A stretch of DNA of 64,000 nucleotides from Candidatus Altimarinota bacterium (GTDB lineage Bacteria; Patescibacteriota; Gracilibacteria; BD1-5; UBA6164): the NCBI GenBank assembly GCA_020631485.1, contig JAHDHC010000003.1, positions 10,792 to 74,791 of the forward strand. Direction: 5' to 3'. Position numbers and translations under genes: made by a program. Under the pieces are notes generated by a model. That model made no database searches. It was given only the letters and a program-made list of their open reading frames with translations, and was not told where the DNA came from. Each line of letters starts with the position of its first letter. The stretch's first letter is position 1. Positions 407 through 59,727 of the stretch are shown here, in pieces.

Positions 407-1340
407 CTTGAAATACGTATCAAATAAAATCAGGATTTCCTCGAATAAAATCAAGTATATTCATAGCCTTTTTTCATTCAAGTTTTATCTCTTGAAGAAC
501 AAGTATTTTTTTGTCAGCACATACAACTCATATTTTATCTTCATTGAATTTTAGAACTTCTCATACTTTCACTCACTCATTTCATATATCTACATGACAG
601 CGGAGAATATCTAATTTTTTTCAATTGAAAAAACCATATATTCAGGGCCATCCATAATACGCTCTGTAGTAGTTATAAATACTCTCAGCTGATGTGTTAA
701 AATCAATCAATCAATCTGATTTTGTGATCTTGTGACAGTATGTAGCGTTTAAATCATCTTGTGCTTTTGCTTCAATACTATTTGTTAGAAGTCCTTCTAT
801 CGTTTTTTGAAGAAGTGCTGGTCAAATCTGTTGAAACTTCTCAAAGACATCTTTTTGGGTCATGTCAGGATCGAGGTCTATTACATGTTTTAAAAGCATG
901 TCTCACTCATCCATTCACTCTGACATATGCATCGTTGTAAGGCCTGTCTGTGTGTCCCCGTTTTTGAGAGCAGCCTGAACTGGACTTGCTCCTCTATATA
1001 AAGGAAGAAGGCTTCCATGAAGATTTATACAGGCATGTTTCGGGATATCTAAAATACGCTTGGGAATAATTTTCCCATATGCTACTACGACGAAAAAATC
1101 TATATCACTACGTGCAGAGGCAATTGTCGTGTCATTCTTAAGAGATGAGGGCTGAAGTACAGGAATGTTCTTTTCCTCAGCGAGCATCTTGAGTGCTGTT
1201 TTTTTGAGCTCTTTTTTACGTCCCACGTACTTATCTTCCTGAGATACAACAAAGCTGCACTCAAGGCCTTTGTATTCTAGAAGTCAACGCAAGACTTCTG
1301 CACTAAAGTCAGCTGTTCAAAAATATGCTATTTTTATCAT
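399..1340 (-). CDS. fmt: methionyl-tRNA formyltransferase
   Basis: MIKIAYFGTADFSAEVL...[65 protein letters not shown]... These are classic Fmt motifs (HxSLLPxxRG). 313 aa once in-frame TGAs are read as Gly. Stop TAA at 399-401. Confidence 0.9.
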
Positions 1341-1381
1341 TGTGGAATCTGTCTTTTACGTATTAATATCTGTTTGTTTGA

Positions 1382-2446
1382 CTATAGTGAATCATGCGTT
1401 TTTCAAAATTTCTCGACAATCTTATTTATAAAAATGACGATAAAGGCAATAAGAAAGAAAACAAGTATTTTTCCAGTTTTTTCCAGAAAGAGCGCCGTAA
1501 GTCAGAAAAAAAAGCTAAGTGAATATACAAATATAAGAAACTGTGTTTTTGAGAGTCATGTTCGCATGAGTCTATGATGAAGGTGAGTAAAATCACCCTT
1601 TAATGGGTTTTTATGAGACAAAATTCTCTTAGTCACTACATATACAGCGTCAACACTATATATCCCAAAAACAACAAGCACTGTTGCTATTTTTCCTCCT
1701 GAAATAATAGCGATGGTTGCGAGCATAAATCACAAAAACATCGTTCCACTATCTCACATCAAAATCTTTTCTTTGATGTCATAATACCAAAAAGGTATAA
1801 GTATTCACACAAGGATGATACAAAGTTTCATAATAAAAATTGCATTATCCCTTCATCACTGATAGGTATCCCTCTCAAATAAAATATATCCTAGCAAAAA
1901 GAGTATAAAAAATGAGATAATAGAAAGACCAGATGTATTTCCACTGAGTCCATCAGTCCAATTGAGGGTATTAAATATAAATACATACCACAAAATGGTA
2001 AATACAAAAGGTATGATATAAAAAGTATAATCTCCTACCATGATAAATACTGTTTCTAGCTCAACTATTCCTCAAAATATATTGCTCACGTATCATATTT
2101 TTATGGAACTCAGAGCAATAATACCTCCTATACATATCTGTAAAGCCAGTCGGATTTTTGCGCTGACATTCAATCGATCATCTACAAAACTTACAAGACT
2201 AATTATTCAACCAAAAATCCATATAAGTCCAAGTTTATAACTATAATCTATAAATAAAAAGCTCAGTATAAAAAAAGAGATAAAAAAAGTAATTCCCATA
2301 CTATATGGTATAGGAGCCCTTTTTTTTCAGTATTTTTCTGGATTATCTACGATTCAAAATCGAAAAAAAGCTTTTGAACAGAGTGCTATGAGCAGATAAG
2401 AAAGAATTCATGAACAAAAAAGTAGGAAAAGAAGATTTTGAAGCAT
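1382..2446 (-). CDS. glycosyltransferase family 4 polyprenyl-phosphate sugar-1-phosphate transferase (WecA/TagO/MraY-like)
   Basis: Polytopic membrane protein with FVDDRLNVSAKIRL, NWTDGLSG, GDSGTMFLGF and HLHHRL motifs, typical of WecA/TagO-type transferases. 354 aa. Stop TAG at 1382-1384. Confidence 0.85.
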
Positions 2447-2464
2447 ATATAGTATGGTATGTAC

Positions 2465-3709
2465 TTAGGCATAAAGAGGAAAATCCTTACACAGAGCAAT
2501 AACTCTTTTTCTTTGTTCGTCTAGCACGCTTTCGTTATCGTGATTATTTACAGCGAGTACAAAAATATCCGCTATCTCCTCCATTTGCTCCTCGCGCATA
2601 CCTCTTGTGGTAGCTGCAGGAGTTCAGAGTCTGATTCATGATGGATCCATAGGAGGTCTAGTATCATACGGAACCATATTTTTATTTGCTGAGAGACCCA
2701 CTTTTTCGAGGGCATGCTCTGCGTCTTTTCCACTTACTCACAGGCTTCCAAAGGTATCTACAAGCATCAGGTGATTATCTGTTCAACCTGATACGATTTT
2801 TACTCCAGCATCTTGGAGTTTCATAGCGAGTGTTTGGGCATTTTTCACCACTTGTATTTGATATTCTTTAAACTCTGGCTTTAGTGCTTCTCAAAAAGCA
2901 ACAGCTTTTCCTGCAATGAGATTTTCGTGAGGTCATCATTGAAGTCATGGAAATACTGCTCTATCTATAGCTTTTGCATATTTTTCACGACACATAATAA
3001 TCCCTCATCTCGGTCATCTCAAAGTTTTGTGAGTAGTACTTGTGACAACGTCACAATAGGGAACTGGATTTTCAATGATTCCAGCGGCTATGAGTCCTGC
3101 AATGTGCGCTATATCAGCGAGTAAAATCGCATCACAAGCATCAGCTATTTTTCTAAATCTTTTCCAATCAAGATCACGTGAGTACGCAGAAAAACCTGCG
3201 ATAATCATCTTTGGTTTTGTTTCAAGCGCTATCTTTTCAAGTGCATCCATGTCCATTAGTTCTGTTTCTTTATCAAGAAAATATGGAACTATTTCGTACA
3301 AAATTCATGAAAAGTTCATCGGATGCCCATGACTCAGATGCCCTCATTGATCTAAAGAAAATCAAAGAACTTTGTCTCCTGGTTGTAAAAGTCACATATA
3401 AACAGCCATATTTGCTGGACTTCCTGAAAGTGGCTGGACGTTGACATGCTCTGCTCAGAACAGTTCTTTTGCTCTATGTATAGCAAGTGTTTCAACTTCG
3501 TCAATTATTCCACATCATCCATAATACCTCCTTCCCGGGTATCATTCTGAGTATTTATTTGTGAGAATAGATCCGTTAGCCTCAAGTACTGCTTGAGATA
3601 CATAGTTTTCTGATGCTATCATCTCTATTTCCATTTCTTGCCTTTGAGTCTCGTTTTTTATAAGATTTGCAAGTTGTTCGTCTTGTTTTTGTAAATGTGT
3701 TAGCTCCAT
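2465..3709 (-). CDS. glyA: serine hydroxymethyltransferase
   Basis: [65 protein letters not shown]...[13 protein letters not shown]. 414 aa, in frame with track ORF 3014..3301. Confidence 0.95.
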
Positions 3710-3899
3710 AGATTTAGGGTGTTTAGGTGTATAAAAATAAATAGGTTATTAAAAATTTATTTTTTCTAAACGATGAGCATATATTCGTATTTATAATTCA
3801 TAATCACATAGCTAGGGATAATGTGTATACTATATCTTTTTTACAAAGACTTTCTAGTATATTGTACTAAATTTTGTTAAAAAAATGTGCGTTTCTTTT

Positions 3900-5192
3900 T
3901 TAGTTTAGTTCTCTAGATTCGTTATAGCTATCTATAACAAAACCTTTAGAGTTATTAGACTTGTAGATTTCTAATATTTTTTTTGCTTCTTCAAGCTGTC
4001 TATCGTACTTTTCTTCATAATCAATGTCTTCAAACAGTATTTCTATATCGGGACTAATTCCTTCTTTGTCTATATCTCTTCATTTTGGGGTTAACCATTT
4101 TGCAATAGTAATCTTGAGAAGGGCACCGTTGTCGAACTCAAATGGCTGCTGAACAGATCACTTACCATAACTTTTTTCTCATACGAGAATAGCTTTGTTG
4201 TAGTCGCTCAAAGCTCAGGCAACTATCTCTGAAGCAGAAGCACTATTTCCATTTATCAGAATCACTATTTTGTTTTCATATATTCTTCCATCATTTCTAC
4301 TTTTGTAACTGAAATTATTTTCTTGATTTTTATATTGTGTTTTTACGATGACTTCACCATTTTCTATAAACTTACTCAGTATCTCAACGGCACTTTCAAG
4401 ATATCCTCATCCATTATCACGGAGATCAATAATAAGTCAGTCATATTGCTTTGATTCCTCAAGTGCTTTTAAAAATTCTTCTGAAGAGTTGTCTCAAAAC
4501 ATATTGAGCGCTATGTAAAAATTATTTGTTCATTCTATGACTTCTGATTCAACAGAAGGAATAGTAATTTTTTGACGAATCACCTCAATTTCAAGAAAAT
4601 CTTTTTCTCAGGTTCTCAAAATTTTGAGAAGTACCTTTGATCACGCTGGTCCTTTTATTTTTTCGACAGCTTCATATAAATCGAGCTCTACCAGTTTTTC
4701 TCCGTTGGCCTCGAGAATTATATCACCATTTCTGATTCAAAATTCTTTTGCGGGGCTTCATTTTAAAACTCTTTCTACCACGATTCCAATATCTACACTA
4801 TCAACTACTGCTCATATTCATTCAAAATCTCATGACAGTACTTTTGTAAACTGCTCTGTTTCCTCTGGATCTAAATATTCAGAATGTATATCTCCAAGAG
4901 CATCAACCAGTCACTTTACAGCACCTTGTTCGAGACTTTCTTTTTCTACAAAATCACTCTCTATATAATTCGCACGAATCAGATTATAAGTATCCCAAAA
5001 GTTCTCTAAGTTCAGATCTTTTCTCCCAAATACATCCAAGGCTTCGTTAAAAACTATCGTATTTTCTGATTGATTTAATACATTTTTAACATAAAGATCC
5101 TTTACTTTATCAGCAAAAAACACTCAAAGTAAGAAAAATGTTAAAATGCTTGTGAAAAAGATTATAAAAGATGTGAATTTATTAAATTTCAT
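3900..5192 (-). CDS. S41 family C-terminal processing peptidase (Ctp/Prc-like) with N-terminal membrane anchor
   Basis: N-term MKFNKFTSFIIFFTSILTFFLLGVFF. PDZ-like KGSPAKEFGIRNGDIILEANGEKL. LIIDLRDNGGGYL, NGNSASASEIVAGAL and SYGKGSVQ catalytic Ser/Lys motifs. Stop TAA at 3900-3902. Confidence 0.85.
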
Positions 5193-5538
5193 ATATTTTC
5201 ATGTTATAAATTGTCTCCGTATTTTTCAACAAGTATTATTATATTTCCTCAGTGTAAAAAACAAGTCAATAATTTTTTATATTTTACATCGAAAATATGT
5301 TAAAAAAAAATATTGGGTTCTAGACTTGCTGAAAAATGAGTTTTTAAATTTTTCATTTTATTACAAAATCTCATCTTCCCTTCATAAAGGGATTATAGCT
5401 TTTTTACATGCTTTACTATTACTACTACTATTTAATTAAATTAAATATATATATTTATAACTACAAGGAGATTTCAAATATTTGTTTGTTTGAAAAGTAT
5501 ATGATATACTTATGTCATATACTTCGTTATAAATTATT

Positions 5539-10174: not shown

Positions 10175-10856
10175 GCTCTTAAAAGATATTCTCGCTCCAA
10201 AAAAGTGTTATTCTTGTAAGAAAGAATGACACTTTCTTTGTAATGATTGCCGATACAGAGTCGCAGAATATGAGTCATCTTGTTTTATATGTAAGGAAGA
10301 ATCTGATGATTATAAAATACATAAAAACTGTAAAAATGATTGAGTGTATTATGATAAAATGCTCATAAAATACCATTATGATTGATACTATATTTCTAAA
10401 ATGATCAAGGATGCAAAATACTACCAAAAAAAAGACATTTTAGAGGACTTTTGAAAGGAGATGGGTGAGCTACTAGAGCAGCATTGTATGAATCTCGAAA
10501 AGAGTATCCTTATGCCAGTTCCTATGTATTTTTTGAGGAGATGGAAGAGATGATATAACCAATCGGAAGTTCTTGCAAAAGCTATTTCACAAGAACTGAA
10601 AATTCCTTGTTACAATAATATATTATACAGAAAATATAACACTAGACAACAAAGTAAATTATCGAAAAAAGATCGTATGAAAAATCTTAAAAATTGCTTT
10701 GCGATACGTAGCAAGCATATAGACATTCTAGACAAAAAACAAATTATTTTGGTGGATGATGTTGTATCAACTGCTTCTACACTCAATGAAATCTCGAAGC
10801 TTTTAAAGTCCCAAGGTGTAGAAAAAATTGTGTGCGTGTGTATTGCCTCAAATTAG
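10161..10856 (+). CDS. comF: ComF family protein (ComFC-type phosphoribosyltransferase-like, Cys-rich N-terminus)
   Basis: Starts 14 nt inside the previous gene. CYSCKKEGHFLCNDC...CFICKEE zinc-finger-like N-term. C-term IILVDDVVSTASTLNEISKLLKSQGVEKIVCVCIA PRTase motif. Frame checked codon by codon. Confidence 0.8.
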
Positions 10857-25859: not shown

Positions 25860-26981
25860 ATGGAACACGAAAATACAGAAAATACCCAAAACTGGGAAAA
25901 AAGAAAAACATTCTTTGATTCTTTTAACGAATCAATGGCTATAAAACAAAAGATGCGACTTAAATCAAAACTTATGTTTTATAGATTTATGTCTACCATG
26001 GTCGATTCAGGTATGTCTCTTATAAAATCAGTAGAAGTTATCAGATGACAAGAAAAGAATAAGACAGTACAGATTATGCTGGAGGATGTTATTGCAAATC
26101 TTCGAGCTTGACAGACACTCTCAGCCTCTTTGTGAAAATATTATAATACTTTTTGAAGTTCAGAAGTGGCAATTTTAGAATCAGGAGAAAAAACATGAAA
26201 GCTGAATTCTGTGTTAAAGGATCTTGCAAATCAAATAGAGAAAGTATCCAGTATTTCATGAAAGATAAAAGCAGCCCTGATTTACCCTGTTGCGGTTATA
26301 CTGATAGCATTTGCAGTTGTAGTGGTTATGATGGTGTTTGTTGTGCCGAAGTTATTAGAATTATTTACAGATGCAAATGATCTTCCAGCTGTTACACGTG
26401 CACTTATAGCTACCTCTGATTTTTTTATCAATTCATGGTATCTTATAATTATTGGTTTTTTTCTCATAGTCGTTTTTACAAAAGCGTGGTGAAAAACTAA
26501 AGAGTGAAGATATTATCTTGATTATATTATGCTTAAGCTTCCTATTTTTTGATGACTTACAAAAAAGGTAATTCTCTCAAAGTTTGCGAGAATTCTTTCA
26601 GGGTTGCTCTGAAGTTGAGTTTCTGTTGTTGAGTCTTTAAAAATCGTTTCAGAAGCTTTATGAAATGAAGTATATAGGCAGAGAATAATGCTTTTACAAA
26701 TGGATATAAAAAAATGAATTAAGATATGGGAGTCTTTAGATGGTGATAAACTTTTTCCCCCTATGTTAGTGCAAATGGTTCAGATATGAGAGCAGACAGC
26801 AAAACTTGATTCAACTATTGTGAAGATTGCAGATTTTTATGATGAAGAAGTCGATAATGTTGTTTCTATAATAAACAAGCTCCTGGAGCCAATAATAATC
26901 GTTTTTATTGCAATGGTTGTTTTGTTTATAGCATTATGAGTAATGCAGCCGATAATGTCCCTAACTGAGCAGATTCAGTAA
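25860..26981 (+). CDS. pilC: type IV pilus platform protein (GspF/PilC family)
   Basis: Two T2SSF-type repeats: FYRFMSTMVDSGMSLIKSVEVI...ILESGEKTGKLNSVLKDLA and FARILSGLLGSGVSVVESLKIV...MVQIGEQTAKLDSTIVKIADFY, plus three TM segments. 373 aa. Confidence 0.9.
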
Positions 26982-26984
26982 GCT

Positions 26985-27030
26985 AAAAACAATAAAAAGT
27001 GTGCATATATGCACACTTTTTATTGTTTTT
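26985..27030 (+). terminator. strong terminator after pilC (23-bp perfect palindrome)
   Basis: AAAAACAATAAAAAGTGTGCATA/TATGCACACTTTTTATTGTTTTT. A-run and T-run on either side suggest it can work in both directions. Confidence 0.7.
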
Positions 27031-27299
27031 GATATACCAGGATGCATCAAAATATTTAAATAATTAACCATGTGTATTTGTGAAGATTCTGTGAAATGGC
27101 TGTCACGTTCTTTGACATAGTGCGTTATAGTCAATATACTTTGACCGTTAAATTTTACTTGTGGTTCTTGGTTGCAAATAAATGTAACACAACAAGTTCT
27201 AATAATAAGTTAAAGTTTGCTCATTAACATTTTCCGACTACATTTAAAATGTGTATTGAGTTACAAAGTTTTGAAACTATAAGTTTGTATTGTATTGAT

Positions 27300-27355
27300 A
27301 CAACTTAGGGAAAAAGTAAATTCTGTTTTCAGTGTTTATTTTTTCCCTAAGTTGT
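27300..27355 (+). repeat. 16-bp perfect inverted repeat (hairpin with 24-nt loop) inside a 380-nt non-coding region
   Basis: ACAACTTAGGGAAAAA-(24 nt)-TTTTTCCCTAAGTTGT. A related CAACTTATGGG lies 10 nt downstream. Confidence 0.6.
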
Positions 27356-27413
27356 GCACAACCAACTTATGGGTTAAGGCTTTAACCATAGTATTTCTTA
27401 AAAAGCACTTTTG

Positions 27414-28502
27414 GTGAAAGAAGTATCTTCCAAAAATATAGTTTCTATTTTACATCCTCAAATTAAGGTTGTATGAGGAGCTATGAAACAAATGCTGCAC
27501 ATGGCAGATTATTTGGCGAAAAATAATAGTGTTTCCTTTTATGTGTTTGAAAAAAGTAGTGTACATGTAGATAAAGACTTTGGGTTTCCAATTATAAGTT
27601 TCTACTCTACATATCCTATGAAATTTCTAAGCTTTATTTTAATTGCTTGGCACATTCGAAAAAGTGATATTATTATATGCTGAAATTCTCCAATGCATTT
27701 TGTTGCAATTCTTTCAAAAATTATATTTTGATCGAAAGCGAAAATTATTTGGTGGCATCATCATTTCCCATGGTACTTTCAAGAAAATACTGGTATTACG
27801 ACATATTTTAAAAAAATAATTGAACTTCGTTGTATAACGAATATCGATACTATAGTTTGAAATAGTAGATTTTTGCAAACCCAACTACAAAGTATATACA
27901 AGAGAAAAATCTGATGTATTTTTCCTAGAATTGAAGATATATATTTTGAAACTTCAACAACAATAAAAAACAAAGCGAAAAAAACAAAGCGATTGTTTGC
28001 AGTGTCAAGGTGGGACTCCTGAAAGTGACTGACTGATATATTTAATGTATACGAATCACTTAAAAACAATTTTGATATAGAGCTTTATATATGATGAACT
28101 TGAAAAGACCTAGACAAGTATAAAAAGAAACACGAGAGTGATCCAAATATCAGCTTTTTGTGATATTGTGATTCAAGAACAGTGCGAGATAATCTTTTAG
28201 AGACAGATGTATTCTTATTTCTCTCAAAAATTGATTCTTTCTGACTCGTTATTCTTGAGTCGCTCTTGACTTGAGTTCCAGTCATATCTTACGATAAAGG
28301 AGAAGCGTCATATATTATCAAAAACTGAATAAATTGATATGCACAAGAAAGCATTGAATGATGTATATCAATGCTAGATACCTTACTGCGAGACAGAGAA
28401 CTACTCGCTTTTATGAAAAATCAATCAAGAAAATCTGTTATTTCAAACTATAGTAAAGACATATTCGAAAAACAACTGGAACACATTATTTTTGAGAAAT
28501 AG
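27414..28502 (+). CDS. GT4 family (GT-B fold) glycosyltransferase
   Basis: C-terminal DVFLFLSKIDSFGLVILESLLTGVPVISYDKGEASYIIKNGINGY matches the E-x7-E GT1/GT4 motif. The N-terminal KNIVSILHPQIKVVGGAMKQMLHMADYLAKNN only appears if the start is moved upstream of track ATG 27483, to GTG 27414 or TTG 27411. Frame checked. Confidence 0.8.
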
Positions 28503-28534
28503 TCATTATTTTTATTTCTTAAATATTGTTTCAA

Positions 28535-31500
28535 ATGAACGTATTTAAAAAGATCGTTGCTGGTGCATCTATCTTCGCTGTTGCTGTAGTTTCTACTGCT
28601 TCAGGAGTTAGTGCATACACGAACGCTCAACTAGATGCAGCCAATGGGCTTGCATGAATGGGGATCATCGTTGATCACTCAAACGATCCAATGGCTTACA
28701 ACATGGATCAAACCGTTTTGAGACAAGAAATCGCTGCAGTTGCAAGAGGTGTCTACGAAGTAGACAACTCTATGGCAGTAAATGCTGCAAAAGCAGATTC
28801 TTGTACAAACGCGTTTGCTGACGTATCAGCTACAAACCCAAATACTTGGGCTTGTTATACAGTTGAAGGATTATTAAACAATAACCTTATTGCTGCTAAC
28901 CCTAACTTTAGACCAGAAGAAAACATCACGAAAAGTGAAGCTCTCGGTATGGTTGTAAAAGCTGCTTGTGGAAATGATTATTCATATGATCCATCAGCTA
29001 CAGGTACTTGGCAAGCACAACTTGGAATGTATGCTACTGCAAAAGGTATTGCTACATTCTCAGACTATAATACTGCTGCTACAAGAGGATTTACTTTTGA
29101 AGCTGCTGTAAATGCTATGAATGCTTGTGGAGATTCATCAGATGATACTGATAGTCTTCTCGATGATCTATTAAATGATCTTGGAGGTGACAGTAGTACT
29201 GATACAGGAACTGGAACTACAGGAACTGGAACTACTACAGGAACTGGAACTACAGGTACTACTCCTACTACTCCTGTTGTTACAGGTGGTACTCTTGAAG
29301 TAATGCTTTCTCCAGATACTCCAGCTTCTGCTACTATTCCAGGAGGAGTTAATGGTCTTCCAGTTGCTTCTTTTGATTTCACTGCTGGTGATTCAGATGT
29401 TACTATTTCACAAGTTACAGTAAAAAGAACAGGGCTATCTGATAGCGCAACTATTGAATATATTGCTGCATTTACTGAATTAGGAAGAGCTTCTAATCAA
29501 AAAAATGACAACCAAGAGAACAATACTGAAGCTCAACTAAACCTTTCAGGAGGATGAGTAGTTGTTCAGGCAGGTCAAACAAGAACAATTACCTTTGTTG
29601 TTGATATTCCTTGTGTAAATGGTACTGGTTGTGATCCTACAGTTGAATCAGATGAATTTGCACTCGAACTTGTTGAAGTACAAGCTTCTGCTACTGTTAA
29701 TGCAGTATGAGGACTTGAGGCAAATCTTATGAGAGTAGGTTCTGTAGATGCTCCTGAAATTACTATCAACACAGGTGGAGGATCTCCTGATCCAAAAATT
29801 GGTGAAGAAGGAGCTGAAATATTTGAGTTTGAAATAGATGGTTCTAACAACGAAGATGTTATTCTTAAAGCTATTACATTCGAAGGAAATGGAAACGCTG
29901 AAGATGATCTCATGAACTTCGAACTATACTATGAAAATACTCTTGTAGCTACTACTGCATCTATGAACGATGATTACCTTACTTTCAACCTTGGAAACGG
30001 AGTAACTATCGAAGAAGATAAAACAGAAGATTTTACAGTAAGAGCTGACGTTATTGAGGGTGCTGGTGATACTATCCAATTTAAGATAGACGCTGCACTT
30101 GACGTAACTGCACAGTCAACATCATTTGGATATGGAGCTGCTGTTGATATCAGCAACGTAACTGGATCAAACAACTTTGGTTCTATTACTATCGAAGCTG
30201 GTGAGCTTACTCTCGTAGAAGTTGAACCAGAATTTGACGAAATTAGAGAAGACAAAGACAACATTACTCTTGGTGGAGTAAAAATTACTAACGTAGCTGG
30301 ACAAAACCTAGAATTACAAGAATTTGGTGTAAAAATTACTATGGACCCAAATACTGCAATGGTTGGATCTAATCCAGCTGTACCTGCTACTGTATTTGAA
30401 GATGTAGAACTATACTCTGAAGACACAGGTTCATCATATGAACTTTCTTCTACGAGTACTGGTCTTTCTGCAGTATACTCTGATACTGGTATAGATGTTA
30501 TCATACCACAAGGTACGACTGAATGGTCTATAAGAGCAGATACTGTTGAAGATATAACTGATTTTGATAATGTTAGATTTACTCTCTCTTTCGTTACTGG
30601 AAGTGTAGGTGCTAACGGTGGTTTTTATGTAGAAGAAACTGAAGATAATACTCCAGTTACTGATATAACTCCAAGTTCAATAACTTTCAACTCTATTGAT
30701 GGTTCTGAATCAGGAGTACAAGTATCACTTACTCCACTTGCTGATACTGATGTAGTAAGAGGTGCTGATGAAGTAGTTGCTCTTCAATTCGAAGTAGAAG
30801 CTGAAGAAACAAGTGATGTTGTTATTGATGAAGTTACTGTAAAAGTTGCTTCTGCTACAGCAGCTAGTGGTGTTGCTTCTAACCAAGAAGTAGCTGAAGT
30901 TAAACTTTACCAAGGATCTGTTGCTCCAGGTAACCTCCTTGATTCTGAATCTGGTTCAAACATTAACACTACTTCTGGAGAAGTAAGTTTTGATGATATG
31001 GGTGAAATTATGATTGACGCGAACACTACTGAAACATTTGTAGTAGTTGTATCTTTCGTAGATAGCACAGATGCTGTAACAAATAGTGACTATGTTGTTT
31101 CACTTACTGGACTTGATGTTGAAGATGATGAAAATGATACTATTACAGTTACAAACCTTCCACTTGTTTCTGCAAGAGATATAACTGTAAACAACGCTGG
31201 TACTATTATTCAACTTGCATTTGACGCTGCAAACGCTGATAACGAGTTTAATAAACAAGGACTTGCTGGTGATAACATTGTTATTGCATCTTACGACGTA
31301 AGAGCTGATAATGAAGAGGTTGATGTTGAAACAGTTACATTTACAATCGCTGGTGCAACTAATCTTGCTGATGCTGTTGTAAACGCAACTCTTCTTCTTG
31401 ATGGAGTAGCACTAGAGACTAACTCTAACTCTGATATTACAGGTTCTACAATTGTATTTGATGACCTTACAAACCTTATCATTCCTACTACTACTTCTGA

Positions 31501-32107
31501 ACTAGCTTTGAGACTTAACACTGCAAACATCGGTGACGGATTTGTATGAGTTGCTCAAACTGGACTTACAGTTTCTAACGTAGTACTTTCAGATGCTGAG
31601 GGTGTTGATTCAGGAAAAAACCTTGCTGTTGCTGATATAGCTGCACAAACTGGTGGATCTTCTAAAACACTTGATATCGTAAGTGCTATAGTTACTCCTG
31701 CTGTTACTGACGAATTTGGAACTGATGACTCAACTGCTGAGCTTAGACTTGTTGTTGACGGTGGAATCAATACAGATTCAACTGGTAACTCTGTACAAGC
31801 TGAACTTACAGGTCTTACATTCGAAGTAACAACTGTTACAGGAACTGTTCCTGCTACAATTACTGTATTAAACTCTAATGATGTAGTTGTAGGTAGTAAC
31901 AACTTCAGTGCCGCTGGTACTGTTACAGTAGCTGTTTCTTCTGATTCAATCGGGAACGATGACGAAACATATACTATAGAAACTACAGGTGAAGCTATCT
32001 TCAGATTAACAAGTAACGGTGTTGCTTATACAATCAATGGAGGAGGTTCATTTACTACTCAACTTGATAATAACCTAGACCTTGGTCAAAATGCTAACTC
32101 TAACTAA
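28535..32107 (+). CDS. S-layer-type cell-surface protein (1190 aa): signal peptide, SLH-like region, Thr/Gly linker, many beta-sandwich-like repeats
   Basis: MNVFKKIVAGASIFAVAVVSTASGVSA signal peptide. FADVSATNPNTWACYTVEGLLNNNLIAANPNFRPEENITKSEALGMVVKAA fits the SLH consensus (F.DV...WA....L...gii.g...F.P...iT..EA). Linker DTGTGTTGTGTTTGTGTTGTTPTTPVV. Repeated modules of the type ...FEIDGSNNEDVILKAITFEGNG.... Strongly biased GCT/ACT/GGT/GTA codon use. Only 4 in-frame TGA. Followed by tandem terminators. Confidence 0.8.
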
Positions 32108-32135
32108 TACTTAGTTTGAAATCATTTCCCAAGAT

Positions 32136-32201
32136 CGAGACATATCTCGTTTTGTAATCAAAAAAACCCTTCTTTCTCTTTGAGAAAGTAAGGGTTTTTT
32201 T
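32136..32201 (+). terminator. two tandem rho-independent terminators after the S-layer-type gene
   Basis: CGAGA-cata-TCTCG+TTTT (32136-32153) and AAAAAACCCTTCTTTCTC-ttt-GAGAAAGTAAGGGTTTTTTT (32161-32201). Confidence 0.7.
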
Positions 32202-32270
32202 GTGCCCTAATTATTTATTGCATAAATAGCTGACTTTTGTAGTATAAGCAAAACCAAATTTTAAATACTG

Positions 32271-33104
32271 ATGAAAAAACAAGACTTACAAAACAAAGGA
32301 AAAGCATTTGGCCTTTCAAACTATGAAATAGATACATTGATTATGTATCATTGTAGTATATCAAAAAAGGAATATTTTTTACTAGACATCCTAGACAACT
32401 TTCAAAATATATTAGATGATTTTCAGAGAATATCAGATGGATATCCTCTTGAATATATTACATCAGTATGCGACTTTTATGGGAGAGAATTTTATGTGGA
32501 CAAAAGAGTACTTATTCCAAGAATCGATACAGAATGTATGATTCAGAGGATAAAAAATAAAAATTATCAGACTCCTCTTCAGCATATAGATATATGAACT
32601 GGTTCATGAATAATTCCAATTACATTGAATCTCGAAGGAGTAATCTGTTCATCCCAGTATGCTCTGGATTTATCTTTTGATGCTTTGGAAGTGTGCCAGA
32701 AAAATCTAGAAAAATACAATTTAGAAAAGAGTGTCTTTGTGTACAATCATGATCTTTTGAGCCATTTTGATGCGCTAAATCTTCATCGATCACCAAAGAC
32801 TATGATTACAGCAAATCTTCCATATATAAAAAATAATGATCATGATAATATGTGACTCTCTACTATTGTACATGAACCTGATATAGCTTTATATTGATGA
32901 AAATGTAGTTGATTTGAAATCTATGAGAGACTTATCATGCAGTGTAAAAAAATTGCAGAAAATTGATACTCAATAGATCTTTTTATAGAAATATGATTTG
33001 ATCAAGCGAATCTCGCTCAATTATTTTTAGAGAAACAACAACTAGATTTTGAATTTTATAGAGATAGTGCTACAATACAAAGAGGTATAGAAATACACTT
33101 TTAA
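32271..33104 (+). CDS. prmC: release-factor glutamine N5-methyltransferase (PrmC/HemK)
   Basis: GYPLEYITSVCDFYGREFYVDKRVLIPRIDTE, DIGTGSGIIPI (SAM-binding site, with Gly residues encoded by TGA), ITANLPYI (an NPPY-type motif). 277 aa. Confidence 0.85.
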
Positions 33105-33879: not shown

Positions 33880-36024
33880 ATGAGTAAAAAAACACCACTC
33901 AATATGGTGAGAAATATCGGTATCATTGCCCACATTGATGCGGGTAAAACGACGACAACAGAGCGTATATTGTATTATACAGGGAAGATTCATAAGATTT
34001 GAGAAACTCATGATGGTGAAGGAACAATGGACTGGATGGATCAAGAAAAAGAAAGAGGTATTACTATTACTTCAGCAGCTACAACAGCTTTTTGGAAAGA
34101 TCACCAAATCAATATTATTGATACTCCAGGGCACGTTGATTTTACTATAGAGGTTGAAAGATCACTCAGAGTTCTTGATGGGGGAGTTGCAGTATTTGAT
34201 GGGTCACAATGAGTAGAACCACAATCAGAAACAGTATGGAAACAAGCAGATAAGTACAGTGTACCAAGAATCTGTTTTGTAAACAAGATGGATAAAATGG
34301 GTTGAGACTTTGACATGTCAGTAGACACTATCAAAAAAAGACTTGCTGGAAACAAAGTAGTTGCGATTCAATATCCAATAGGTGCATCAGAAACATTTGA
34401 GGGTATTGTTGATATCATCGAAATGAAAGCCTATCACTTTGAAGGAGACAGTTGAGAAAAAGTAACAGAAATCGATATCCCAGCTGATATCAAAGATAAG
34501 TGTGAAGCGCTAAGACTTGAGCTCATGGAAAAAGTAGCAGAGCAAGATGAAGCACTCATGGAAAAATATTTTGAAGAATGAGAGCTATCAGTAGACGAGA
34601 TCAAAAAAGGACTCAGAGCGTGAGTATGTAAGAACGAACTCTATGCTGTAACATGTGGATCAGCACTTCAAAATATATGAGTACAGATGGTAATAGATGC
34701 TGCTGTAGATTTTCTTCCTTCTCCAGTAGATGTAAACGAATGAAATCTCACAGTTAAGGATGAAAATACAAAAGAAGAACTCAAAACATTTCAAATAGGT
34801 GATGATACATCACTCGCTGCTATTGCTTTTAAAGTAGCAACTGATCCATTTGTCTGAAAATTGATATTTACAAGAGTATATTCTGGTACTTTGAAAGCTG
34901 GATCATATGTGTATAACGCAACTTCAGGGAAAAAAGAAAGAGTTTGAAGACTCCTACAAATGCACTCAAACTCAAGAGAAGAAATCCAAGAAATTTCTAC
35001 ATGATGTATTGGGGCTATAGTTGGTCTTAAAGATACAAAGACATGAGATACTCTCTGTGATATGAATGATAAATTTCTCGTAGAATCAATAGAGTTTCCA
35101 GAGCCTGTTATTTCTATCTCAGTTGAACCAAAAACAAAAGCTGATCAAGAAAAAATGTGAGTTGCCCTCAATAAACTCGCAGAAGAAGATCCGAGTTTTA
35201 GAGTAAGATCAGACGAAGAAACAGGACAAACGATCATATCAGGTATGGGAGAACTCCACCTTGATATTATTGTTGATAGAATGAAACGTGAATTCTCAGT
35301 TGAGTGTAATGTATGAAATCCACAGGTTGCCTACAGAGAGACGATTAAAAATACTGCAACAGATGTAGAACATAAGTATTCAAAGCAATCAGGTTGAAGA
35401 TGACAATATGGACATGTAGTTGTCACTTTTGAGCCGTATACGTTTATGGACGAGGAGGACGAAAAAGCTGAACTCGCCGAGAAACCTACAAACAAGTTTG
35501 TAAATAAGATTACAGGATGAGTTATCCCAAAAGAATATATCCCTGGTGTAGAAAAAGGACTGAATGAAGCATACAAAAGATGATTTGTGGCATGATACCA
35601 AATGGTTGATATCAAAGCAACACTTACATTTGGTTCATTCCATGATGTTGATTCTTCTGAATTGGCCTTCAAAATAGCTGCTTCAAAAGCATTTCAAGAA
35701 GCTTGTAAAAAAGCTCAAGCTACTATACTTGAACCAATCATGAAAGTAGAGGTAAATACTCCAGAAGAGTATATGGGTGATATAATAGGACAGATCAATT
35801 CAAAAAGAGGAAGAATCGAAGAAATGGGACAAAGATGAATGGCAAAAATTGTAAATGCATTTGTACCACTATCTGAGATGTTTGGATACTCTACAGAACT
35901 TAGATCTGCGTCTCAATGAAGAGCAACATACGCGATGGAATTTGATCACTACAGTGATGTGCCTTCAAATATAGCAACACAAATACGTGAAGAAAGAGGT
36001 TTTGTACTCCCAGATGACGAATAA
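33880..36024 (+). CDS. fusA: translation elongation factor G
   Basis: [36 protein letters not shown] (the Gly of KIGE is TGA at 34000-34002), [44 protein letters not shown]. 714 aa. Stop TAA at 36022-36024. Confidence 0.97.
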
Positions 36025-59052: not shown

Positions 59053-59727
59053 ATGAAAAATACAAAAATAAAAAAGTTTTTTAGATTCAAACTGTGATTA
59101 TTCATTATATTAGCTTCTCTTTGAACAGTTTATGCTTCTGATTTTTTTTCATGAACTATCTTAAGTCAAAACGCAAGTTCTGTGGGGTCAAACGGATCAA
59201 ATATACAAATTATAAGTGGAGAAGAACCATGATATTGGAATGCCTGAAACAATTCTACAGTTATTTGAAACTATTTTAGATGATTTTATTACGATTCTGT
59301 TTTTTGATATTTTCAACTTGATTGGTCAGGACAAAAAGATGAAAATGTAAGTGTCGTATGATCAACAACAGCATGTTGAAACTGATACTGATATAAACTA
59401 TGAGGTTTTGCTTATAGTCCATATTATGGATTCATAGACTTTGATTATAGCAATAATATATTTGTATATTATTGTGTTGATGATAGTTCCCTTCATGGTT
59501 ACGCCTACAATGAAAATATCTGATTTCAAAACTTTGAGGGAATAGGTTTTGAGATAATAGGAGAAGTCGGAACAGTTTCTGAGGATGTTTCTGATGGGAT
59601 ATTTGTAAACGACTCTACAAAGATCAATCTAGAAAACTTCTGGGACTGAAATATTAGATCATACCTTTGATGAGATCTCATTCAATGAGAAGATGATAAA
59701 GAATCTATTTTCTACATTATTAAATAA
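59053..59727 (+). CDS. secreted aromatic/Gly-repeat protein (224 aa)
   Basis: Signal peptide MKNTKIKKFFRFKLGLFIILASLGTVYA. Repeats of the type GFYYDSVFGYFQLDW, GGFAYSPYYGFIDFDY, HGYAYNENIGFQNFEG. 18 of 30 Gly codons are TGA. Frame checked. Confidence 0.55.

Follow-up and report, generated by a model that had tools for sequence, protein, structure and literature searches.

The window analysed here is a stretch of 64,000 nucleotides from a Candidatus Altimarinota bacterium (Patescibacteriota; Gracilibacteria; BD1-5; UBA6164), corresponding to positions 10,792 to 74,791 of the forward strand of contig JAHDHC010000003.1 in GenBank assembly GCA_020631485.1. Its plus-strand gene at 28535–32107 (coordinates without a contig label refer to the window) is likely to encode the major S-layer-type surface protein of this Gracilibacterium, with in-frame TGA kept scarce in it through translational selection at the top of the expression range. 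The genome, available as 1.21 Mb in 27 contigs with about 33% GC, uses code 25, in which UGA means glycine. That this code is in use can be seen from the EF-G gene at 33880–36024, which is open only if its 21 TGA codons are read as sense.

As background 1127 non-overlapping open reading frames (ORFs) were called greedily under code 25, and of their 24551 glycine codons 11682 (47.6%) are TGA. The 1190-residue product of 28535–32107 is encoded with exactly four TGA (G41, G341, G392 and G1005, at nucleotides 28655, 29555, 29708 and 31547) next to 48 GGA, 53 GGT, four GGG and no GGC, i.e. a TGA share of 4/109 or 3.7%. Among the 778 genes with at least ten glycine codons to which the binomial depletion test was limited, it is the most TGA-depleted one of the genome (p ~1e-24). 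The initial annotation, made from the sequence alone, had pointed to this near-total avoidance of UGA and had set it against a 224-codon gene at 59053 with 18 TGA and an adhesin with 54; both comparator counts proved exact. The direct neighbours, pilC and a gene for a family 4 glycosyltransferase (GT4), have 76–80% TGA (16 of 20 glycine codons in the GT4 gene). All contigs show TGA shares of 0.35–0.53, so that none of them is a contaminant.

The codon style of the gene is that of the most highly expressed host genes. In a score built from the codon preferences of ribosomal-protein genes, with the glycine codons left out, it ranks fourth of 844, after EF-Tu, a pilin and S3. Its preferences follow EF-Tu (GCT, ACT, GTT/GTA, GAA, CTT, CCA and AGA, the last at 100%), ATA is avoided, and its GC content at third codon positions (GC3) of 0.16 belongs to the lowest class in the genome. 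The style noted initially (GCT, ACT, GGT, GTA, GAA) is thus present, with GTT to be added, and matches the EF-Tu of the host. From this codon bias, the tandem terminators and dedicated leader described below and one published metaproteome, we infer that few genes of the cell are translated as heavily as this one, and synonymous selection is therefore expected to be strongest there. In the metaproteome, obtained from groundwater Gracilibacteria, an SLH-domain protein that may not be an ortholog of this family reached a summed count of 106, to be compared with 2 for EF-G, 20 for S14, 75 for HU, 88 for RpoB and 125 for AtpD (PMC11452946 Table S8).

Also the protein itself has the properties that would be expected from an S-layer component. 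It begins with a Sec-type signal peptide (MNVFKKIVAGASIFAVAVVSTASGVSA, encoded at 28535–28615 and followed by YT), which had already been recognised in the initial annotation, is conserved in the orthologs and has a predicted local distance difference test score (pLDDT) below 50 at residues 1–25. Then follows a complete three-motif SLH domain (aa 29–200; 28619–29134). A single motif is visible to Pfam PF00395, with 15.5 bits (cut-off 20.8) for the protein and 21.0 bits in a six-frame genome scan. A profile built from 52 homologs, by contrast with this single motif, matches the whole SLH domain of SpaA (6cwc, 6cwm; residues 4–172) with E = 5e-11 and that of Sap (3pyw) with E = 6e-7. In the AlphaFold2 (AF2) model of aa 1–215 (pLDDT 82) three helix pairs are found, and Foldseek with this model returned solely SpaA-SLH and Sap-SLH (target-normalised template modelling (TM) score 0.63–0.76, probability 1.00), the next match having E >1. 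The motifs LRQE, TKSE and TRGF align to TRAE, TVEE and TRAQ of SpaA; across the family R63, E65 and E135 never vary and R184 hardly does, and by alignment they appear to correspond to the TRAE-type Arg/Glu residues, with which SLH domains bind pyruvylated ManNAc. The SLH segment proposed before is thus genuine and turned out to be part of a full domain. A database search gave more than 145 homologs of about 1150–1200 aa, many with precomputed PF00395 matches, some of them annotated as “S-layer homology domain-containing protein” from Candidatus Gracilibacteria or Peribacteria. For Gracilibacteria a periodic surface layer was already predicted from S-layer-domain proteins (PMC6851277).

The remainder of the molecule is predicted to consist of a linker and a long array. 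In the full-length AF2 model (mean pLDDT 86) the helical SLH module (30–200) is followed by a disordered linker (201–250, pLDDT <50) and, from residue 253 to 1187, by an all-beta region of about eight tandem Ig-like beta-sandwich domains (29291–32095). The acidic linker (29135–29284) includes a Thr/Gly tract at aa 224–249, encoded by an imperfect ACA-GGA-ACT repeat (29203–29271), and every ortholog has such a low-complexity linker of 34–64 aa that opens with a DDLLGDLL-like motif. Self-BLAST of the protein revealed no internal repeats, and the family profile search detected no sequence similarity of the beta-sandwich region to any solved S-layer protein. The mature protein has a calculated mass of 120.5 kDa and an isoelectric point of 4.05, is rich in T, V, A, G, D, N and S and contains 6 Cys (0.5%) and 1.3% Met; it is secreted, acidic, poor in Cys and Met and within about 40–200 kDa, as S-layer proteins are.

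SLH domains bind a pyruvylated polymer that is produced by enzymes of the CsaB and TagA classes. At the level of protein families both classes are represented in the genome, namely by two CsaB-like pyruvyl transferases (PF04230) above cut-off (120 bits at C24:23719-24540 and 76 bits at C16:15357-16325) and one TagA/WecG-type transferase (PF03808, 87.5 bits, C19:75977-76441). TagA is known to co-distribute with SLH (bioRxiv 10.1101/2025.04.02.646754). Taken together, profile, predicted fold, architecture and composition bear out the S-layer-type identity suggested at the outset: an SLH-anchored protein with the build of the SLH S-layer proteins of Firmicutes is well supported by sequence and model. 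The beta-sandwich array is presumed to be the lattice-forming part; its modelled fold is compatible with a lattice without being diagnostic.

Avoidance of TGA is a property of the whole lineage. An ortholog was found in 42 of 61 related genomes, mostly with 0–4 TGA in about 1150–1300 codons. At some 20 loci with full-length ORFs the ortholog has a TGA share of 0–7% of its glycine codons and the flanking genes have 25–94%; even at four exceptional loci with 20–37% in the ortholog the flanking genes have 62–94%. The depletion is thus maintained in orthologs of about 30 genera. Counted per genome, TGA is ordered as S-layer gene at or below EF-Tu, EF-Tu below EF-G and EF-G below the average (Wilcoxon: S-layer gene < EF-Tu, p = 0.012; S-layer gene < EF-G, p = 3e-4; EF-Tu < EF-G, p = 5e-4). 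Moreover the S-layer gene carries some TGA in just those genomes that have most TGA in EF-Tu and EF-G, and this covariation fits a mutation–selection balance. Conservation next to TGA-rich flanks together with this gradient upholds the earlier proposal that TGA is selected against in the gene. A short SLH-only paralog (C13:19736-20314, minus strand; about 215 aa), consisting of a signal peptide and an SLH domain 56% identical to aa 15–216 of the S-layer-type protein, is present in most relatives as well and has ordinary TGA usage (7 TGA). This means that the depletion belongs to the S-layer gene and not to SLH sequences as such. The paralog itself may be a wall-bound partner of the large protein or a competitor for the same polymer.

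Within the genome a small group of genes shares the depletion, namely EF-Ts (TGA 6% of glycine codons), L11 (7%), pilin (9%), EF-Tu (15%), S2 (16%) and S1 (17%). If the genes outside the training set are ranked by codon score, the pooled TGA share is 26% in the top 20, 41% in the next 20 and 46–51% in the rest. Avoidance of TGA is about as strong as that of the codons GTG, GTC, CTG, AGG and CGN, so no cost peculiar to the reassigned codon is shown by these data, and TGA behaves as an ordinary non-optimal codon that is purged only from the very top-expressed genes. Two other proteins deserve mention in this context. A giant protein of 2742 aa (C5:29794-38022) has 48 TGA among 263 glycine codons (18%), is among the top 10 by ribosomal-protein-like codon score and is a candidate for a further highly abundant protein of the surface; the other, a secreted subtilisin-like protease with 618 aa (C18:9467-11323), has 0 TGA in 55 glycine codons at a GC3 of 0.20.

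Several observations weigh against the interpretation as a coat protein shaped by translational selection. On the side of the protein, many SLH proteins do not form lattices, Foldseek with the full-length model found generic tandem Ig-like/MG-domain proteins only (TM <0.2) and no specific S-layer fold, and a second SLH protein was counted just once in the groundwater metaproteome (PMC11452946 Table S8). On the side of the codons, a few relatives have 22–35 TGA in the ortholog, the classically highly expressed genes of the S10-spc cluster have about 45% TGA, and EF-G has 36%. The initial annotation had named ribosomal genes as the check on its proposal, and the outcome is divided: with 146 TGA in 407 glycine codons (36%, compared with 48% genome-wide) the 31 ribosomal-protein genes are mildly but not strongly depleted. 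Over the whole genome TGA share and codon score are not correlated (rho -0.01), and after removal of GC3 the partial correlation is -0.18. Selection must therefore be weak and becomes visible only at the extreme of expression, i.e. in about the top 40 genes.

The alternative that survives best, although we consider it rather unlikely, concerns the function of the protein and leaves the codon argument unchanged. According to it the protein is anchored by SLH and very abundant without being the protomer of a lattice, e.g. a fibrillar adhesin or a protein by which an episymbiont contacts its host. Several further proteins encoded here indeed have SLH domains, which are known to anchor many proteins outside S-layers (bioRxiv 10.1101/2025.04.02.646754), the fold matches of the array are only generic Ig-like/MG-domain ones, and other large surface proteins are partly depleted of TGA as well (18% in the 2742-aa protein, 31% in the adhesin). 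However, none of these is as codon-biased and TGA-depleted as the gene at 28535–32107, of which most members of the family have a single detectable ortholog of about 1150–1300 aa with its own conserved leader upstream. Size, acidity and low Cys content of the product are typical of S-layer proteins, and its domain plan is that of Sap, EA1 and SbsB, which also speaks for a lattice protein.

A second alternative explains the codons without selection. If the gene were older than the code change and its glycine codons arose by non-synonymous changes from GCT, GAT, GTT and AGT, mainly GGT would be produced and TGA would be scarce for historical reasons. The protein is in fact rich in Ala, Asp, Val, Ser and Thr with NNT codons one step from GGT, and other fast-evolving surface proteins are moderately depleted. 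An Akashi-type test on the four TGA-rich orthologs, which has low power, gave no significant preference by site conservation (TGA at 27% of conserved and 33% of variable glycine sites, odds ratio 0.74, p = 0.42). Nevertheless, 48 of the 109 glycine codons are GGA, which in code 25 is one synonymous step from TGA, and yet only four TGA are present. The adjoining pilC and GT4 genes are full of TGA, the depletion persists through about 30 genera and varies from genome to genome along with that of EF-Tu and EF-G, and the slowly evolving genes of EF-Tu, EF-Ts and L11 show it likewise, so that we regard a neutral origin as very improbable.

Recent acquisition from a donor with the standard code, to which a homolog annotated in Candidatus Peribacteria and the presence of foreign-looking TGA-free genes in this genome could point, is the least probable explanation and largely refuted, since the gene has a GC3 of 0.16 with EF-Tu-like codon usage and since its orthologs retain the leader and the synteny (pilC, GT4 where present, S-layer gene) in about 30 genera at 27–58% identity, a divergence at which synonymous sites are long equilibrated. 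For the same reasons of codon usage, synteny and leader the gene is native and vertically inherited. A foreign origin or a contaminant contig was considered separately and is ruled out by the TGA shares of the contigs and the EF-Tu-like codon style. The foreign-looking genes form a second TGA-free class with a GC content of 0.43–0.47 and a GC3 of 0.34–0.39; they comprise DapD-like, PyrC-like and PyrF-like genes and that of a membrane protein (C11:15619-16689, C18:6128-7276, C6:6224-7042, C16:64-1245 and C18:15886-16398). By appearance they were imported recently from donors with the standard code, and they are separate from the highly expressed genes with low GC3.

The decoding apparatus was surveyed with ARAGORN, which found 35 tRNAs including one each of tRNA-Gly(UCA), tRNA-Gly(UCC) and tRNA-Trp(CCA). 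It did not find tRNA-Gly(GCC) in this assembly, from which about 7% of the genome is missing. GGT is nonetheless favoured in the top-expressed genes despite the detection of only tRNA-Gly(UCC) and tRNA-Gly(UCA); either the whole GGN box is read through U34 or tRNA-Gly(GCC) is located in the missing 7%. Release factor 2 (RF2) is absent; the sole release-factor homolog of the genome scores under the RF2 cut-off. Directly downstream of the S-layer terminators the window contains a gene for a PrmC/HemK release-factor glutamine methyltransferase (32271–33104; TIGR03534, 159 bits). As to the nature of the cost of UGA, the literature offers rare UGA=Trp peptides detected by proteomics in a BD1-5 bacterium (PMC4032931) and a possible UGA/UGG ambiguity through U34 wobble discussed by Shulgina and Eddy (PMC8629427). 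The initial annotation had suggested that UGA decoding is slow or error-prone. Avoidance of TGA speaks for some cost, which may lie in speed or in accuracy; the Akashi-type test gave no accuracy signal.

A second conserved feature of the locus is located in the ORF-free stretch of 430 nt before the GT4 gene, one segment of which almost all related loci share as conserved DNA. It contains two hairpins on the plus strand. In the first (P1, 27298–27355), analysed in 25 aligned genomes, arm A ATACAACTTAGGGAAAAA pairs with arm B TTTTTTCCCTAAGTTGT around a variable apical part. RNAalifold shows compensatory changes in 12 of 22 pairs. In the main helix 13 of 17 pairs show such changes, 89% of cells pair in comparison with 77% in shuffles, a value reached by 0/500 shuffles, and the covariation score is 0.42 (0.20 in shuffles and 0.10–0.16 in slid controls). 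Numerous G-U pairs favour the sense strand. The second hairpin (SL2, 27372–27387) is the nearly invariant 16-nt sequence GGTTAAGGCTTTAACC with a 6-bp stem and a GGCU loop. Its 15-mer occurs a single time in this genome, and of 37 genomes of the same family 32 have exactly one copy, while a reversed-pattern control gave none. The copy always shares the strand of the S-layer gene, or of the pair of GT4 and S-layer genes, and lies just upstream of it. An Rfam search of 26950–28600 gave only sub-threshold hairpin noise, so the leader matches no Rfam family. A switch by alternative pairing of arm B with a segment C was considered and rejected: this pairing can form, but covariation gives no support for it.

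In two genomes in which the protein search had found no ortholog the motif still precedes an SLH ORF of the S-layer type. In G017 (locus L031, G017:C1:816500-822100; ORF 1253-5365, minus strand) this is a protein of 1370 aa with 2 TGA and a diverged C-terminal region, in G007 a fragment with 0 TGA at the end of a contig. Leader and codon signature thus outlast recognisable similarity of the array domains. The 15-mer is absent from two sister families (f2 and f3, G037–G060), in which EF-Tu and EF-G have 0–3 TGA in nearly all genomes, some of them possibly with the standard code. This means that TGA use and leader are not uniform across the order.

More tentatively, and with less confidence than for the identity of the gene, a linked pair of ideas can be put forward. 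UGA decoding by tRNA-Gly(UCA) could still be costly, either by slowness or by Gly/Trp ambiguity, so that the S-layer gene, tuf and tsf would be held near their ancestral TGA-free state throughout the family, and at the same time the lineage-specific leader RNA with the hairpin GGTTAAGGCTTTAACC could be the target of a dedicated factor controlling how much coat protein is made.

Concerning the remaining layout of the locus, the pilC operon ends at a strong palindromic terminator (26982–27060), where Rfam matches are again sub-threshold hairpins only. Between this terminator and the leader a consensus scan found a candidate sigma-70-type promoter on the plus strand (27112–27140, TTGACA-17-TATACT, 11 of 12 matches); since promoter-like sites are no more numerous in the region than in shuffles, it stays a candidate. 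The GT4 gene (27411–28502, plus strand) encodes a GT-B glycosyltransferase of 363 aa, cytoplasmic by appearance (Pfam Glycos_transf_1 5e-20, Glyco_transf_4 9e-8). It directly adjoins the S-layer gene, as reported before, with 32 nt between its stop codon (28500–28502) and the ATG at 28535. Just before this ATG, where no Shine-Dalgarno sequence is visible, there is an A/U-rich motif, ATTATTTTTATTTCTTAAAT (28505–28524, plus strand); similar motifs precede the ortholog start in loci L007, L003, L025 and L023, and the motif is retained where GT4 intervenes between leader and gene. Downstream of the stop codon the two tandem terminators of the initial annotation were recovered, the first being CGAGACATATCTCG followed by TTTTG (32136–32155, plus strand) and the second a long hairpin of A-tract, stem and T-tract, AAAAAAACCCTTCTTTCTC...GAGAAAGTAAGGGTTTTTTT (32159–32201), which is bidirectional in form. 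The region 32105–32230 folds with -33.6 kcal/mol (z = -5.75), and 0/200 shuffles fold as well. GT4, where present, and the S-layer gene probably form one transcription unit behind the structured 5' leader.

The role of GT4 is less clear. In about 15 of 29 related loci its gene is the immediate upstream neighbour of the ortholog, a place taken elsewhere by pilC, and this synteny suggests a functional link with the S-layer gene. For the enzyme O-glycosylation of the S-layer and synthesis of the wall polymer are equally possible. In NCBIfam the best matches were SdgA and BshA, both far under their cut-offs, so that no specific family can be assigned. The Thr/Ser content of the linker is not associated with an adjacent GT4 gene (0.27 with and 0.24 without, p = 0.52). 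The initial annotation had described the Thr/Gly tract as resembling a site of O-glycosylation: the tract exists, but its glycosylation by GT4 finds no support beyond synteny. Coupling of the two genes for the purpose of glycosylation, as implied there, is not borne out by the adjacency in only about half of the relatives, the independence of linker composition from GT4 and the lack of a specific GT4 family.

From these data the following scheme can be proposed. Transcription, probably together with GT4 where it is present, would proceed behind the leader with P1 and SL2 and end at the two tandem terminators. After Sec export the protein would bind with its N-terminal three-motif SLH domain to a pyruvylated secondary cell-wall polymer, which could be made by the TagA-like and CsaB-like enzymes, and the flexible acidic/Thr-Gly linker would hold the approximately eight beta-sandwich domains outward, where these are presumed to form the coat. 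Heavy translation would impose the strongest synonymous selection, by which the preferred set of GGT/GGA, GCT, ACT, GTT/GTA, GAA and AGA is kept. TGA, read by its own single-copy tRNA-Gly(UCA), would be a non-optimal codon; AT-biased mutation would load ordinary genes with it (to 48% of glycine codons), and the top-expressed genes would be purged or would never have been invaded.

Known SLH S-layer proteins of Firmicutes, such as Sap and EA1 of Bacillus anthracis, SbsB of Geobacillus and SpaA of Paenibacillus alvei, share with the protein described here the signal peptide followed by an N-terminal three-motif SLH domain, apparently the TRAE-type Arg/Glu residues, the CsaB/TagA-like enzymes, the string of beta-sandwiches, an acidic chain of about 120 kDa and strong terminators. 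In contrast with them it belongs to a code-25 host from the Candidate Phyla Radiation (CPR), its anchor and array are separated by a long disordered acidic/Thr-Gly linker, its motifs are LRQE, TKSE and TRGF instead of TRAE, the array is unrelated in sequence, and its lattice is only presumed.

That highly expressed genes of bacteria are under translational selection for synonymous codons is well established from the work of Ikemura and the codon adaptation index (CAI) framework of Sharp and Li. As in these classic cases EF-Tu, EF-Ts, S1, S2, L11, pilin and the S-layer gene share preferred codons and avoid the mutationally favoured ones. The difference is that the largest absolute drop concerns a reassigned stop codon with a dedicated tRNA and that most ribosomal-protein genes are barely involved. 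The closest published parallels are eukaryotic. In Blastocrithidia (PMC12153298) and in an oligohymenophorean ciliate (PMC10553269) reassigned in-frame stops are distributed non-randomly and are rarer in highly expressed genes, which the authors ascribed to translational burden or inefficiency. There tRNAs compete with eRF1 and expression was measured, whereas the present case concerns a bacterium without RF2, with expression deduced from the genome. In a literature search we found no published account of TGA avoidance in highly expressed code-25 genes.

Long structured 5' leaders are known from S-layer mRNAs, e.g. that of slpA in Lactobacillus. Like these, the leader found here is a conserved, structured, single-copy non-coding element directly upstream of an S-layer transcription unit; it differs by its unrelated sequence, the absence of an Rfam family, the invariant 16-nt hairpin and the glycosyltransferase gene interposed in half of the genomes. 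SLH proteins and a surface layer of Gracilibacteria had already been noted; the present gene stands out by the lineage-wide consistency of its TGA depletion and by its uncatalogued leader.

For Gracilibacteria, i.e. uncultivated, host-dependent CPR bacteria whose envelope mediates host contact, the gene provides a lineage-wide candidate for the coat protein. By its single-copy leader the S-layer locus can be located also when the protein itself is too diverged for easy recognition, as in G017 and G007. There is also a practical aspect: the nearly TGA-free gene is predicted almost intact by standard-code gene callers and is among the few long genes of which this is true, which can bias annotation and binning. 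With respect to the evolution of the genetic code, the captured UGA has spread under AT pressure to become the commonest glycine codon, yet it is least tolerated where the translation load is highest. If it is true that UGA decoding stays costly, the S-layer gene would be a natural gauge of that cost.

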